64,000 bases of DNA from positions 1 to 64,000 of IMG/VR virus record IMGVR_UViG_3300035670_000108; one strand, given 5' to 3'. Positions 28,330 through 48,800 of this stretch are shown here, piece by piece; within the stretch, counting starts at the first letter, position 1; each line of letters begins with the position of its first letter. The translations under genes were made by a program, and so were the position numbers. Source of the stretch: a virus. Below the pieces are notes generated by a model. That model made no database searches, was not told the DNA's origin, and was given only the letters and a program-made list of their open reading frames with translations.

Positions 28330-28398
28330 TTGCTCCTCCAGGAAGCAACAGACCCTGCAAAGACTTTGCAGGGTCTGAAGGTTAGACGAATTGGCGGA

Positions 28399-28704
28399 TC
28401 AGCGGAAGTCGTACAGTTGCTTGCGCAGTTGCGCTCGCTCCACGTCCCAGTCCTGGCCGGTGCAATAGGTCATCACCTGGCCCCTCACGTAGAGGCGCTC
28501 GATAGCCCAGCGGCCAGGCCACTCCTTCAGGGGGCGGGCGATGTTCTCGGCGATGACCTGCTTCTTGTCCTGGCGGCAGCGTTTGGTGACCATGTCCAGC
28601 AAGGATCGCTGCTGTTTGTCCGTCAACACCTGCTGCGCGTTGGGGTTTTCTCGTGCGTCTCGCATCATCATCTTCAGCGAGATCTCCTCGTGGGCTGTGC
28701 TCAC
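28399..28704 (-). CDS. hypothetical protein
   Basis: GTGA coupling, GGGAG SD. Confidence 0.7.
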   Translation of the reverse strand: MSTAHEEISLKMMMRDARENPNAQQVLTDKQQRSLLDMVTKRCRQDKKQVIAENIARPLKEWPGRWAIERLYVRGQVMTYCTGQDWDVERAQLRKQLYDFR

Positions 28705-28985
28705 AGTGCGTACTCCCGTTTGATGGCCAGATAGCGGGTGGTGTCGACCTTCTGCACCACCCAGTCAGTGGCCTCGGCCTCGTTGTCGCCGCCGGCCGGG
28801 TAGACCCCAACGACGGTGGGGATCGAGAAGCTCTGCCCCTTGGCGGTGACGATGCGGTCGCCGGGCTCGACCTTCATGTCCTCGGGCGCCAGGTAGAAGT
28901 AGGAGCGGTTGCCACCGCCACTGAAGATCACGCCGACAACGACGTAGGGGGTCTTGGGTTTCGGGTCGAGCAAGGGGTGGCTCAT
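28701..28985 (-). CDS. hypothetical protein
   Basis: ATGA coupling. Confidence 0.75.
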   Translation of the reverse strand: MSHPLLDPKPKTPYVVVGVIFSGGGNRSYFYLAPEDMKVEPGDRIVTAKGQSFSIPTVVGVYPAGGDNEAEATDWVVQKVDTTRYLAIKREYAL

Positions 28986-29485
28986 GGCAGTTGTTCCTCG
29001 GGCATTTCCAGGCGGTAGAAGCCCAGCACCTGGGTGCCGTTGACCTCCTGGACGGTGAAGGTGATCTCGGGGCCGGCGACGTTGTCCAGCTGCTCCATCA
29101 GCGAGCTGACGAAGGCGTCGACCTGCGGCGGCTGCAGCTCGTGGTAGCGGTCGAACAGGCCGTTGTAGCTGGCCGGCGCCACCTGGGCGATCAGGTCGAG
29201 CAGGAACTCTGCCGTCTCCTCGTCGGTGTAGCTGGCCGGGCTGACAAGGTGGGGGCCGCCATCGGCTACCGTCTCGGCCGGCGCGCTGTGCACCTCGAAG
29301 ACCACCAGGCAGTTGTCACCCTTGAGGCTCGCCAGCGGGTTGCTCTTGAGGGTGGCTATCGCCTCGTCGACGTCGCGGTTGGTCGGCGCCAGCAGTCGCC
29401 GGGCCTCTTCCTCGCTGATGCCGACGTGCTGGGGGCCGACGCGGCGGGAGAAGTGGCCGGGAATGGTGCGGCGTTGGTAACTCAT
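28982..29485 (-). CDS. hypothetical protein
   Basis: AAGGAG SD before ATG 29485. Confidence 0.7.
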   Translation of the reverse strand: MSYQRRTIPGHFSRRVGPQHVGISEEEARRLLAPTNRDVDEAIATLKSNPLASLKGDNCLVVFEVHSAPAETVADGGPHLVSPASYTDEETAEFLLDLIAQVAPASYNGLFDRYHELQPPQVDAFVSSLMEQLDNVAGPEITFTVQEVNGTQVLGFYRLEMPEEQLP

Positions 29486-29736
29486 GGGGTGGCTCCTTTG
29501 CGTGGTTGACAGTCGGTGTGGTAGGTCGGCTCGGTCTTCCACACCTTAGAACGAGCGATCAGCTCGTCGAGAATCTGGCGTCGGGTTTTGGCGTTTCCAG
29601 CGGCGTCAGTGTTGAACGGGTTGAGGGTCTGCGACTCGGTGAAAGTGCGCGAGGCCTTCTTGTTGCAGACGGGGCAGATTCCCGACTTCTTGATCGGGTA
29701 CTTGACCACCTCGAAGTTCACGCGGGTTGTACGCAT
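29482..29736 (-). CDS. hypothetical zinc-binding protein
   Basis: CPVC...HTDC; GAGG SD. Confidence 0.7.
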   Translation of the reverse strand: MRTTRVNFEVVKYPIKKSGICPVCNKKASRTFTESQTLNPFNTDAAGNAKTRRQILDELIARSKVWKTEPTYHTDCQPRKGATP

Positions 29737-30164
29737 GGCTCACCCTCCATGCCGCCGGCATAGATCTTCACGTCGTCGCCTAAGTACAGGTCAATCGGTA
29801 GGAAGTCGGTGTCGTAGCCGCAGGCCTTAGTCAGGCGCAGCCCGACATCGCCCAGGCCACGATCCCAGAACCCGCAGCCGTGACCGTTACGGGTCAGCCA
29901 GAGGTCATGACCGGCGTAATCGTAGGCCGTACCCTGGCTAGGGTCATAGCTGATCTGGTCGGTGTACAGCTCCAGGTCATCGCGGTAGCGCTCGAAGAAC
30001 TTGGTGGCCTCGGCCTTCAGGCGCTCTTCCTGGTGCTCCCCCCACTCGAAGTTGTCCGAGTCGAGGTCAACGTCTTGGCCGGTCTGCGGGTGGGTGCTGG
30101 TGCTGCTCCACAGGGCGGCCACCAGGTAGCCGCGCAGGAACTCTTCAAGGAGTGGGTTACTCAT
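29718..30164 (-). CDS. conserved phage hypothetical protein
   Basis: AGHDLWLTRNGHGCGFWDR motif. Confidence 0.8.
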   Translation of the reverse strand: MSNPLLEEFLRGYLVAALWSSTSTHPQTGQDVDLDSDNFEWGEHQEERLKAEATKFFERYRDDLELYTDQISYDPSQGTAYDYAGHDLWLTRNGHGCGFWDRGLGDVGLRLTKACGYDTDFLPIDLYLGDDVKIYAGGMEGEPCVQPA

Positions 30165-30414
30165 GGGGGAATACCTCGTCGATAATGTGGCGGCAGCGGC
30201 GGCACTCTCGCGCGCCAGCCGCCTCGGCGGTGCGGAAGGAGCCGCCGGTGGAGTACGGCTTGCTGCCGCACATGGCCCCGCCGTCGTGGATAGCGTGGGC
30301 GACGCCGGTCTGGTCGTGCCAGCGGTTCAGCGAGGGCGCCCACCACACGCCGGTGGCGTCGACAGCCCGGCGGATCTCGGCGAGCCGCCCCTTGCCTGGC
30401 TCACAGAGGTTCAT
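30157..30414 (-). CDS. hypothetical zinc-binding protein
   Basis: H...CG...CRRC. Confidence 0.6.
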   Translation of the reverse strand: MNLCEPGKGRLAEIRRAVDATGVWWAPSLNRWHDQTGVAHAIHDGGAMCGSKPYSTGGSFRTAEAAGARECRRCRHIIDEVFPHE

Positions 30415-47414: not shown

Positions 47415-47454
47415 GGCGTGGCTCCTGTGGACCTGCAAAGACTTTGCAGGTCGG

Positions 47455-47706
47455 TTAGCGGACGGTGCGGACGTAGACGGGCACGGCCCAGCGCGTGGCG
47501 CCGATCTGCTGGAAGACGGTCTGGGTCTGGAGCCACGGGCGGGCGCAGAGCTGGGGGCGCTGGCGGCGGGCGGAATCCGGGCGATCGATCACGCGGGGAA
47601 TGTAGGGGGCGGATTCGACTTGGTGCTCTGCTGCCAGATGGTTGCAACGGTCGGCGCCATGACCACGGCGGCCAATGTGGGCGAACAGGCGATTGAGTGC
47701 GTGCAT
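47455..47706 (-). CDS. hypothetical basic protein
   Basis: AAGGAG SD; bracketed by repeats 47433 and 47732. Confidence 0.6.
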   Translation of the reverse strand: MHALNRLFAHIGRRGHGADRCNHLAAEHQVESAPYIPRVIDRPDSARRQRPQLCARPWLQTQTVFQQIGATRWAVPVYVRTVR

Positions 47707-47860
47707 GGTGAATCTCCTTTGCTGGATTGGGCTGCAAAGACTTTGCAGCTAGGGGGGCTGCAAAGACTTTGCAGCTAGGGGAAGCGCTTTGCCGTGCGGC
47801 CTGAAAAACAAGCGCGCACGGCAAAGCGCCCCACTAGGGGGCGCTTTTCTGGCGTGGGGT

Positions 47861-48613
47861 TTAGGCCGTTGCTTTTGCCAGTTCGGCCGCTTTCGCTTGC
47901 GATTCGCCCCGGCTTTTCGCATTGGGCTTGCCGGCGGCCGTGTTGCCGCGGCCTCTTTTCTCTGCCTTTTCCAGTGCAGCAGCAGTGCGCCGGTCAATTT
48001 CGGCCGCGATACGCTTATTTAATTCGTGCAGGTCTGCCGAACTGAAGGCTGCGAGTTGTTCCATAATGGCGCCGATAGAATCCACGCGCGGCGCGTTTTT
48101 ATCCGATACCGATACGGCAGGGCCTTTGCCAGTGGCGGCCGGTTTAGAGGCGGCCGGTTTAGCAGGGAAAAGGCGCGCATTGACTGCATTAAGCGCCTTT
48201 TGATCGTGGCCTAGCGCGGCCTTTACTTCGCCTTTCGTCGGCTTTTCCAGAATGATGACGTTTGCTTTACAGGCGCCACGATCAAGCGCGATATAGCAGA
48301 CGGCCGGCCGGGACTCTTCTGCAATGGCGCCCCAAATTTGGCGAACATGCGTGGCGATACTGTTAGCAATGCGTGCCCAGCTCTCGGCGTCAATTTGTTC
48401 TTTTTTGGTCAATTGTTCGGCCAACTGGACAAAAACGCTTTCCAGCGTAGTCCCGATGACCGGCACGGGCGAAGCGAAGAGGGCGCGCACCTGGTCGGCT
48501 AGTTTGCCGCGTGCTTTATCGGCTTGCGTGGCGGCCTGCACAATGGCGGCGGCACTGCCGTTTACTTTTTGAACAGCGGCGGCAACGGCTTTATTTTGGC
48601 TGGTGGTTTGCAT
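47861..48613 (-). CDS. first large gene of the sigma-54 transcript; Ala/Lys-rich hypothetical protein
   Basis: GGAG SD; distinctly lower-GC codon usage. Confidence 0.8.
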   Translation of the reverse strand: MQTTSQNKAVAAAVQKVNGSAAAIVQAATQADKARGKLADQVRALFASPVPVIGTTLESVFVQLAEQLTKKEQIDAESWARIANSIATHVRQIWGAIAEESRPAVCYIALDRGACKANVIILEKPTKGEVKAALGHDQKALNAVNARLFPAKPAASKPAATGKGPAVSVSDKNAPRVDSIGAIMEQLAAFSSADLHELNKRIAAEIDRRTAAALEKAEKRGRGNTAAGKPNAKSRGESQAKAAELAKATA

Positions 48614-48629
48614 GGTATGGACTCCGGTA

Positions 48630-48701
48630 TTAGATAAGGCGAAGAGCGCGAGCGATGAAATAGGCGGCCGGTATGCAAAGCGCGACGATTACTAGTTCCA
48701 T
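48630..48701 (-). CDS. 23-aa hydrophobic peptide (not in ORF track)
   Basis: GAAGGG SD; MELVIVALCIPAAYFIARALRLI. Confidence 0.45.
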   Translation of the reverse strand: MELVIVALCIPAAYFIARALRLI

Positions 48702-48800
48702 GCTGCGGCCCTTCTGTTAGGTTTGCCGGTCTGCAAAGTGTTTGCAGCTTCCGGTCTGGCTTGTGACCGGCTCATAAATGCACCCGGCACGCCCTACACA

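Follow-up and report, generated by a model that had tools for sequence, protein, structure and literature searches.

A repeated 17-bp palindrome heads early-gene modules of a phage and has counterparts of different sequence in distant relatives

The early-gene arm of the uncultured virus recorded in IMG/VR as IMGVR_UViG_3300035670_000108 is punctuated by 19 copies of a 17-bp palindrome, most of them placed between the stop codon of one gene and the ribosome-binding site of the next. We analysed positions 1 to 64,000 of this record (hereafter the window), i.e., the first 64 kb of 89,047 bp, whose ends overlap by 127 bp. We propose, with a probability of about 40%, that the palindrome is an operator-type dyad for a lineage-specific dimeric factor and that it is also a passive crossover hotspot. 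It would be the version proper to this lineage of a control element found across a wide group of 75–90-kb siphovirus-like phages, several lineages of which appear to head their early modules with a dyad specific to them: the stop codon comes first, then the dyad, a short leader, the Shine-Dalgarno (SD) sequence, and the ATG. The dyad would most likely act as double-stranded DNA, as the operator of a symmetric (dimeric) DNA-binding protein. This putative protein, probably encoded by the phage, would throttle or shut off, in a co-ordinated way, the leftward transcription across the initial 20 kb of the early arm. With the same 17–21 bp (up to about 50 bp with the leader) recurring 19 times, the copies would also be passive hotspots of short-homology recombination, which the exonuclease-type recombination genes of the phage could exploit; modules would thus be swapped, lost, and gained at the copies.

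The palindrome family is confined to the early arm

The pattern CTGCAAAG-N-CTTTGCAG (17-mer CTGCAAAGNCTTTGCAG) has 18 sites in the window when up to two mismatches are allowed, ten of them perfect and eight with one mismatch. The chance level is far lower (mean 0.01 and maximum 1 in 100 dinucleotide shuffles). The site at 39639 has the 7-bp arms of the family around a 2-base centre; it misses the 17-mer pattern yet belongs to the family. The original prediction, made by reading the sequence alone, had counted about 19 copies and had seen none in the replication or virion blocks. Both statements hold: 18 copies were recovered at the exact coordinates and the 39639 variant completes them, all lie within 28355–48747, and the full 89,047-bp genome has no further site at up to two mismatches. 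A single site with three mismatches is found at 80853, and there is one solitary half-site of the dyad in the genome, at 16510. No other 11- or 12-mer in the genome is repeated nearly as often as those of this family.

The arms hardly vary between copies, even though the leaders next to several of them are unrelated in sequence. The centre base, read in the mRNA sense, is T in ten copies, A in six, and C in two. We found no compensatory changes of the arms among the 18 copies, nor among the eight copies of the close relative G001 (see below). The dyad extends into the flanks by at least 1 bp in 11 of the 18 copies (4.5 expected) and by at least 3 bp in three (0.28 expected, P 0.003). The extensions differ between copies, as had been predicted; the copy-specific ones measure 6, 3, and 3 bp, the longest being at 28349/28372. 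Five C-to-T variants would turn a pair of the stem into G·U, four of them at one position. In three of these four, the change gives the upstream gene its TAG stop; the remaining one duplicates one of the three. Because the variants create a stop or duplicate one that does, they are uninformative on pairing, and we rejected them as support for an RNA stem.

Some likenesses were considered and set aside. The stem base of type I-F CRISPR repeat hairpins (CUGC...GCAG) resembles that of the dyad, with a different stem length. Operators of the LacI/PurR, NtrC, and LuxR types each differ in spacing, and we claim none of them.

Copies stand between a stop codon and a ribosome-binding site on the coding strand

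As judged from the third-position G+C content (GC3), the minus strand is the coding strand between 1 and 47.7 kb, and the plus strand from 49.1 kb onwards. On the minus strand, a typical unit runs from the upstream stop codon through the palindrome and a leader of 8–32 nt to a strong SD sequence and an ATG. An SD sequence, a start codon, and an open reading frame (ORF) of at least 35 codons follow within 45 nt in 12 of the 18 copies on this strand vs. four of 18 on the plus strand. The predicted position between a stop codon and the next SD sequence is therefore correct as a rule of the minus strand, and it has exceptions: the stop may be inside the palindrome (43015, 40706, 33514), the upstream gene may read through it (44480), two copies are intragenic (42443, 39639), two form a tandem pair (47758/47732), and one (45966) is in a 1.1-kb non-coding stretch. 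By our count, copies are found in 14 of the 20 gene junctions of the array that have a gap of at least 25 nt; within modules, genes overlap or abut.

The leader is also conserved in about eight of the 19 copies (CTTTCGATTGCC ... ATAGGAGGCAA). There, it can fold into a second hairpin, TTGCC...GGCAA, with the SD sequence in its loop (predicted in about eight copies). Almost every copy is predicted to form the hairpin of the dyad itself (−5 to −21 kcal/mol), with a 3-nt loop and a stem of 7–9 bp (13 bp in one copy). We found no U-tract after the stem on the coding strand, and no copy was called as a terminator on the minus strand; the terminator scan flagged a single copy, on the wrong strand. 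Terminator-like hairpins are found directly before the copies at 47.8 kb (the tandem pair), 37.5 kb, and 31.8 kb. The 64-kb window has no match in Rfam 15 at the gathering score, and we found no tRNA matches.

The core of the palindrome is under purifying selection

Our close-range comparison rests on one genome, the IMG/VR contig G001 (63,480 bp, about 95% identical over the shared blocks), which has eight dyad copies in its first 12 kb. In the eight orthologous pairs, the core is identical at 134 of 136 positions, vs. 256 of 320 in the 40 nt upstream and 226 of 320 in the 40 nt downstream (ungapped), and the centre base accounts for one of the two differences in the core. At 42443, the intragenic copy encodes LAKSLQ, and four of its six codons end in A or T, when the GC3 of the genome is near 0.85. 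It is identical in G001 (17/17) inside a protein that is otherwise only about 50% identical. The intragenic variant at 39639 is likewise conserved. Since the core is conserved above its flanks and the intragenic copies are intact, the palindrome core is under purifying selection and is kept for its own sake, not carried along with the leaders.

Distant lineages carry dyads of their own

Isolated phages give no megablast match to 28–48 kb, a search for distant matches to 1–8 kb gave only short ones, to Pseudomonas phages, and tblastn with the protease and the primase retrieved Lana, PMBT3, UAntarctica, and Vibrio phages at about 24–30% identity. The scan of IMG/VR for the exact dyad revealed one true relative, G001, and single chance matches; another candidate, G002, proved to be unrelated. 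Scans of IMG/VR with single proteins also found only G001. A metagenome scan gave single matches only among the matches listed, which we take as chance, and the dyad plus leader gave single chance matches only, with no host array, in about 185,000 species genomes. With a profile built from primase homologues, we identified 59 loci in IMG/VR, the nearest besides G001 being about 34% identical. Closer relatives were seen, as proteins, in public assemblies: these contain contigs of 87–91 kb with a primase 51–69% identical and a first early protein 49–64% identical to those of this phage.

We then scanned for repeated dyads in Lana and in eight genomes of primase relatives (primase about 25–34% identical). 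A shuffled copy of each genome contains at most two copies of any dyad with 6-bp arms. Several of these genomes have a repeated dyad of 14–16 bp of their own (Table 1).

Table 1. Repeated elements in distant relatives and their position relative to gene starts (SD sequence, start codon, and ORF within 45 nt of a copy)
Genome	Element	Copies	Sense	Antisense	Remark
G006	TCCTGACATGTCAGGA	15	10	0	spread over 22 kb
G008	GTGTGAATTCACAC	11	7	0	
G010	TTTGTAATTACAAA	17	9	2	
G004	GCGCCACATGTGGCGC	7	2	0	count includes terminal duplicates
G011	TGTACA-NN-TGTACA	9	1	0	
G003, G005	TGTGAAY heptamer arrays				arrays end in an inverted copy; layout left unscored
G009, Lana					no repeated dyad found

Three lineages (G006, G008, and G010) show the same layout as the phage studied here; G004 and G011 have dyads without it, and Lana has the same genome layout without a repeated dyad. 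All copies in G006 and G008, and most in G010, are upstream of the primase gene on its strand. The stop codon in G006 directly adjoins the dyad, which is followed by a conserved SD motif, CTCAATGAGGAG. These lineages share few early proteins, and the 250-aa protein encoded first in the early arm (see below) is not one of them. The consensus hairpins are predicted at −10.6, −10.3, −9.1, and −8.0 kcal/mol in four lineages and at −1.4, −3.2, and −2.8 kcal/mol in three: those of G006, G004, and G008 are stable (−8 to −10 kcal/mol) and those of G010, G011, and G003/G005 are marginal. What is common across the lineages is thus a dyad symmetry of 14–17 bp and not the stability of a stem. Our searches of the open literature brought up no account of this dyad or of any other in this phage group, and the words palindrome, repeat, and promoter are absent from the paper describing Lana, a distant cultured relative (PMC7368026).

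Other repeats and arrangements were seen in these genomes. In G010 (L354), positions 1126–1270 and 7052–7180 each contain a strong promoter-like site (11/12, with TG), a terminator-like hairpin about 40 nt later, the dyad, an SD sequence, and a start codon, an arrangement that looks like a leader with an attenuator ahead of the dyad. The same contig has about 11 copies of GGCATCCCTGAC within 400 bp at about 42.7–43.1 kb, and G009 (L347, L351) has tandem arrays of the 12-mer GGGATGCGACCC, with about 18 copies, at both contig ends; both are unrelated to the dyads.

Some module boundaries coincide with copies

The comparison with G001 between 26 and 44 kb reveals ten indel or replacement events. 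Four of them have one end in the leader of a palindrome, either at the very edge of the dyad (35179) or 29–31 nt after it (40675, 39608, and 28326). Four of the 19 breakpoint sites thereby fall within 3% of the sequence (P 0.002). In the comparison with this one genome, gene gain and loss breaks at a palindrome leader at one end of four out of ten events and at both ends of none. The palindrome also bounds a cassette, which encodes an esterase and is flanked by identical 24-bp direct repeats centred on the dyad.

We also aligned to 28.8–48.8 kb the contigs of four public runs, from one subsurface run, possibly close to the source of the virus, and three wastewater studies. Of the 27 joints listed, six begin and end within about 25 nt of a copy, and three more do so on one side only. 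Two joints probably stem from a single contig, the dyad of which was placed on a third copy by the alignment. Among the joints with a single end at a copy, the one from 34554 to 35179 (275 other letters in between, side of 175) repeats independently the arrangement seen in G001. These joints support exchange at the copies without proving it. Some mosaic boundaries do fall at copies. Red-type exonuclease recombination can use homologies of 20–50 bp, and the exonuclease-type recombination genes of this phage could, by analogy, use homologies of that length at the copies.

Operator, hairpin, promoter, or recombination site

The original prediction had offered three explanations for the palindromes: recombination sites of an integron-like cassette array, operators or roadblocks similar to mycobacteriophage stoperators, and RNA processing or antitermination hairpins. 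We favour the second in a modified form, with an operator for a dimeric factor that is unlike stoperators in being symmetric, restricted to the early arm, and unaccompanied by a recognisable repressor or integrase. The invariant arms around a free centre, the lack of compensatory changes, the single solitary half-site, and the conserved intragenic copy all speak for a site read as DNA. The same holds for the symmetry common to the lineages, in three of which (out of seven) an RNA hairpin would be marginal, and for one copy of G010 placed in the 18-bp spacer of a promoter-like site (TTGACA/TAATAT). Its role as a crossover point is suggested by the four of 19 breakpoints at dyads, the 24-bp repeat, the six of 27 joints, and the presence in the genome of genes encoding an exonuclease, SbcCD, a ligase, and an endonuclease VII-like protein.

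Several observations weigh against an operator that doubles as a crossover hotspot. Among about 100 proteins compared with Pfam or PHROGs, many of which are unnamed, we recognised no helix-turn-helix regulator, repressor, ParB, or other site-specific DNA-binding protein, only two matches to the HU family. A roadblock has no obvious need to stand 8–32 nt before a start codon. That individual copies extend their dyad, here and in G008 (two copies, by 3 and 5 bp more than the consensus), suggests that base pairing is selected. The uniformity within the genome could be due to gene conversion between copies instead of a protein. As for crossover, breakpoints are not enriched at dyads relative to gene starts (3/8 vs. 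8/44, P 0.16), none of the ten indels against G001 runs from dyad to dyad, and six have no end at any copy. The 2.15-kb region of the esterase, with two copies, was lost in G001 via a 12-bp microhomology unrelated to the dyad. Finally, contig joints other than the one at 34554 have short sides and may partly reflect the alignment of repeated leaders.

The most serious rival, which we regard as doubtful but worth retaining, is an RNA element: a hairpin of 7–9 bp with a 3-nt loop after the stop codon, often followed by a second hairpin that shows the SD sequence in its loop. It could be a portable leader that insulates each ribosome-binding site, a stabiliser of the mRNA, or the site of a lineage-specific protein that binds or cuts RNA. 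This would account for the fixed, sense-specific layout, in which the stop codon touches the dyad or lies within it and the start codon follows shortly downstream, and for the prediction of the first hairpin nearly everywhere and of the second in about eight copies. It also fits the extensions of at least 3 bp here and those in G008, the stable consensus hairpins of G006, G004, and G008, and the concentration of all copies in one transcribed arm below a single promoter-like region. That strand has no sigma-70-type promoter site in 30000–49500 (the plus strand has three, vs. 3.4 in shuffles). Yet the stem lacks compensatory changes while the centre of the loop varies, which is the reverse of what is usual in hairpins recognised by proteins, and the C-to-T variants, being explained by stop codons and duplication, do not help. 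The hairpin is marginal in G010, G011, and G003/G005, the conserved copy inside a gene has no ribosome-binding site behind it, and Rfam has no match. Because the stem has 7–9 bp and no U-tract, two common functions fit poorly: it is too short for RNase III, and intrinsic termination needs the U-tract. Of the RNA explanation originally proposed, we retain the hairpin; RNase III-type processing and intrinsic termination do not fit it.

It is distinctly unlikely that each copy is a promoter that restarts the transcription of its module, either through a phage factor acting on the host RNA polymerase or through sigma-54. Restarting would be sensible at 47.8, 37.5, and 31.8 kb because terminator-like hairpins directly precede the copies there, and the distance to the start codon would leave a 5′ leader of about 20 nt. 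The consensus of sigma-54 promoters is TGGCAC-N5-TTGCA, with GG at −25/−24 and GC at −13/−12, ten bases apart. The genome has only one intergenic and correctly oriented match to it (48802–48817, 10/11, with a true GG-N10-GC), and this match heads the early arm. The dyad itself reads CTGCAA-N5-TTGCA, i.e., TG-N10-GC, and so has TG where sigma-54 needs an invariant GG. No phage RNA polymerase, sigma factor, or AAA+ activator was recognised in the set of about 100 proteins, hexamers of the sigma-70 type are absent, and the intragenic copy at 42443 needs no promoter. Nor do the relatives show a consistent association: in G010, promoter-like sites stand about 85 nt before a dyad, around it, or behind it, in no constant arrangement, and in G008 promoter-like sites are no commoner than in shuffles.

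We consider very unlikely that the palindromes are dedicated recombination sites, forming an integron-like array without integrase in which SbcCD, a resolvase, and a ligase cut or pair the copies. The mosaic boundaries and contig joints at copies, the duplicated copy that bounds the esterase cassette, and the encoded SbcCD, ligase, endonuclease VII-like protein, and exonuclease are what this explanation has in its favour. Against it, no integrase (tyrosine or serine recombinase) or HUH nuclease was recognised in the same protein set, and the indels and breakpoints behave as described above. Purifying selection on an intragenic copy is unexpected for a pure crossover site, and 17 bp is far below the size of the palindromes on which SbcCD is known to act in cells. 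Processing by SbcCD is not needed, because short-homology recombination explains the joints. From the cassette explanation we retain some module boundaries and the 24-bp repeat, and we find nothing in support of an integron-like, site-specific system.

Finally, we give as little credit to a host protein, such as a global regulator or a nucleoid protein, that would bind the copies and let the phage read the state of its host: no specific binder encoded by the phage could be named in the protein set, and a precedent is reported in the CtrA boxes of alphaproteobacterial phages (PMC9437464), but the dyads are wholly different between related lineages of similar G+C content (G006, G004, and G003/G005 vs. 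this phage), the species genomes revealed no host array, and the dyad matches no operator known to us. Since the dyads differ between lineages, a fast-evolving phage factor would probably fit better than a conserved host one.

The early arm and its genes

The coordinates of the copies, together with their immediate context, are given in Table 2. The early arm begins at a divergent control region (48.75–49.07 kb) and continues, in order, with the sigma-54-like site, copy 1, a 23-codon micro-ORF, the gene of the 250-aa protein, terminator-like hairpins, the tandem pair of copies, and the modules. Within the control region, at 48787–49017, the 9-mer AGTTGGCAC has three occurrences, two of them on the minus strand and one on the plus strand, and there is a promoter-like site on the plus strand (TTGCCA-17-TACACT).

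Table 2. Copies of the palindrome and the esterase cassette in the window, in the direction of transcription
Feature	Position	Strand	Context
Copy 1	48731..48747	minus	one mismatch beside the centre; 29 nt upstream of the 23-codon hydrophobic micro-ORF 48701-48630; downstream of the sigma-54-like -24/-12 match 48802-48817
Copy 2	47758..47774	minus	first of the tandem pair; directly after the terminator-like hairpins behind the 250-aa first early gene
Copy 3	47732..47748	minus	second of the tandem pair; ATG 47706 is 25 nt downstream
Copy 4	47433..47449	minus	ATG 47414 is 18 nt downstream; 3 copy-specific bp added to the dyad
Copy 5	47073..47089	minus	ATG 47042 is 30 nt downstream; canonical leader TTGCC...AGGAGGCAA
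Copy 6	45966..45982	minus	terminal mismatch; in the 1.1-kb non-coding stretch 45580-46664; no gene start nearby
Copy 7	45118..45134	minus	ATG 45085 is 32 nt downstream; canonical leader
Copy 8	44480..44496	minus	ATG 44449 is 30 nt downstream; upstream ORF 44795-44439 reads through the copy
Copy 9	43828..43844	minus	one mismatch; abutted by upstream TAG stop; ATG 43798 is 29 nt downstream
Copy 10	43015..43031	minus	TAG stop of the upstream ORF forms the last 3 bases; ATG 42987 is 27 nt downstream
Copy 11	42443..42459	minus	intragenic, codons 28-33 of the 197-aa gene 42541-41948
Copy 12	41931..41947	minus	abutted by upstream TAG stop; ATG 41901 is 29 nt downstream
Copy 13	40706..40722	minus	upstream TAG stop forms the last 3 bases; ATG 40678 is 27 nt downstream; different gene downstream in G001
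Copy 14	39639..39655	minus	2-base-centre variant; intragenic; conserved in G001; mosaic breakpoint 31 nt downstream (39608)
Copy 15	37488..37504	minus	ATG 37459 is 28 nt downstream; just after small terminator-like hairpin 37516-37529
Copy 16	35179..35195	minus	ATG 35166 is 12 nt downstream; homology to G001 stops exactly at the downstream edge
Copy 17	33514..33530	minus	upstream TAG stop forms the last 3 bases; left arm of 24-bp direct repeat 33512-33535
Copy 18	31743..31759	minus	right arm of 24-bp direct repeat 31741-31764; after terminator 31787-31810; ATG 31734 is 8 nt downstream
Copy 19	28355..28371	minus	last of the arm; dyad extended by 6 bp (28349-28377), hairpin -21 kcal/mol; ATG 28329 is 25 nt downstream; in G001, 298-bp insertion directly after the ATG
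Esterase cassette	31741..33535	minus	95-aa gene, 443-aa GDSL/SGNH-type lipase gene, own terminator; identical 24-bp repeats at both ends

The first two reading frames of the arm are thus the hydrophobic micro-ORF (48630–48701) and the gene of the 250-aa protein (47861–48613). The latter protein is rich in Ala and Lys, and the GC3 of its gene is 0.58 vs. about 0.85 elsewhere. Its family includes 37 related clusters in public assemblies, and it has no name in Pfam, PHROGs, or PDB and no homologue in IMG/VR, in isolated phages, or in G003–G006. We considered whether it could be a repressor of the phiC31 type (repressor-c cluster): the feature score of 0.79 is below the chance level of the tool and Pfam gave no confirmation, so this assignment was not used.

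The 45 early proteins match only six Pfam families (an esterase and domains of unknown function) and mostly unnamed PHROGs. The rest of the minus arm encodes SbcCD, a Dda-type helicase, a ligase, a DNA polymerase, a primase, an SNF2-type helicase, and a thymidylate synthase, as well as two HU-family proteins (24762–25034, E 1e-25; 21946–22338, E 1e-4). The endonuclease VII-like protein is also encoded in the genome. The HU/IHF-family proteins are the only recognisable DNA-binding proteins besides the replication enzymes. The plus arm starts with a recombination-type exonuclease, followed by terminase, portal, capsid, and tail genes.

A few loci are peculiar. The deletion of the esterase region (31546–33701, corresponding to 8521–8532 of G001) occurred between 12-base stretches that are nearly identical, and it fuses the flanking genes (205 and 116 aa) in frame into one ORF. 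No convincing ORF is found in the 1.1 kb at 45580–46664, a stretch with a raised A+T content, T-runs, and a terminator-like hairpin (46547–46565). Copies of ACAAGGGTGGCG flank it at 45637, 46610, and 46668, and it could be an origin or an RNA locus. A gap of 1.4 kb (10612–12015) without a clean ORF on the minus strand separates the DNA polymerase gene from the next one. The polymerase matches only positions 735–1245 of the 1,445 of the profile; a separate gene or a broken frame may encode its N-terminal part. Lastly, residues 42–85 of a 177-aa protein (26914–27447) match the start of the GTP-binding domain of EF-Tu (Pfam, E 2e-8), with no other part of a GTPase.

Comparison with known repeated signals

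Several well-known systems share part of these traits. The stoperators of Cluster A mycobacteriophages are asymmetric sites of 13–14 bp that have a fixed orientation, are found in both arms, and are bound by the immunity repressor of a temperate phage. Like the palindromes, they are many copies of a short site in intergenic gaps, with a proposed role in blocking the elongating RNA polymerase; unlike them, they are neither symmetric nor restricted to an early arm (here 28.3–48.7 kb), and they come with a repressor. The Streptomyces phage phiC31 has about 18 copies of a 17-bp conserved inverted repeat in its early region, bound by its repressor. The likeness concerns the copy number, the length and symmetry of the site, the early region, and, in our favoured reading, the binding by one phage regulator; phiC31 differs in being temperate with a known repressor gene, whereas none was recognised here. 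The attC sites of integrons also separate small unrelated genes with palindromes. However, these are imperfect, variable in sequence, 57–141 bp long, and adjacent to the gene of the IntI integrase, whereas the dyads studied here have 17 bp and almost the same sequence (ten of 18 perfect, eight with one mismatch), with no integrase found. The RNase III sites of T7, irregular hairpins of about 20 bp or more, also punctuate a long early transcript between genes, and differ in length from the 7–9-bp stems (13 bp in one copy) found here, which are too short for this enzyme.

Two other systems are closer. The PeSL (promoter-early stem-loop) cassettes of T4-type phages combine a consensus sigma-70 promoter with stem-loops that are effective terminators (PMC2839356, PMC4122927). 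In both systems, short intergenic cassettes are repeated in plastic early regions before small genes of unknown function, span from the upstream stop codon to the SD sequence and start codon, and contain a stem-loop. Boundaries of indels and replacements between close relatives fall within the PeSL cassettes; here, four of ten events have one end in a leader, with no enrichment over gene starts. The elements described here differ in lacking sigma-70 hexamers and a U-tract after the stem and in having the dyad as their conserved part. In Cluster K mycobacteriophages, SAS is a 13-bp SD motif 3–8 bp from the start codon, with inverted repeats upstream in ESAS, namely two imperfect 17-bp repeats separated by a spacer of 4–13 bp (PMC3203893, PMC12699233). 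Departures in the ESAS repeats are described as not compensatory (PMC3203893), and in 2025 the function of SAS/ESAS was still given as unverified (PMC12699233). Both systems have an SD motif at start codons and an inverted repeat before many genes, both are restricted to non-structural genes, and both have subcluster- or lineage-specific versions. The differences are that the element here is a single near-perfect palindrome of 17 bp (8-bp arms, 1-base centre), that the SD-linked motif (TTGCC...ATAGGAGGCAA) is present in only about eight of the 19 copies, and that hosts, phage groups, and sequences are unrelated. PeSL is thus the closest known system in evolutionary behaviour and SAS/ESAS the closest in anatomy, and the repeated-dyad punctuation of phage early genes is a known kind of signal in a new sequence form.

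Implications for the control and exchange of early genes

To our knowledge, repeated early-gene signals are known from a few phage groups (T4-type phages, Cluster K and Cluster A mycobacteriophages, and phiC31), and it is only for those with a known promoter or repressor that the function is settled. One may extend the favoured reading, an operator that is also a crossover hotspot, by regarding the dyads as lineage 'barcodes' of a combined system of control and exchange across the supergroup of 75–90-kb phages. We deem this extension unlikely. It supposes that a fast-evolving protein in each lineage would recognise its own dyad only, either as DNA or as an RNA hairpin next to the ribosome-binding site. 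If it were true, early modules would be swapped only between phages sharing a barcode, because the dyad would also be the crossover point, and this would amount to a self-recognition rule for genetic exchange.

The occurrence of the same layout with entirely different dyads in distant relatives provides a natural series of matched site variants. Because the relatives supply these variants, one could search for the binding factor by co-variation or test whether the sites limit gene exchange. Furthermore, the dyad and its leader form a compact natural module for the expression of foreign genes in this group of phages.

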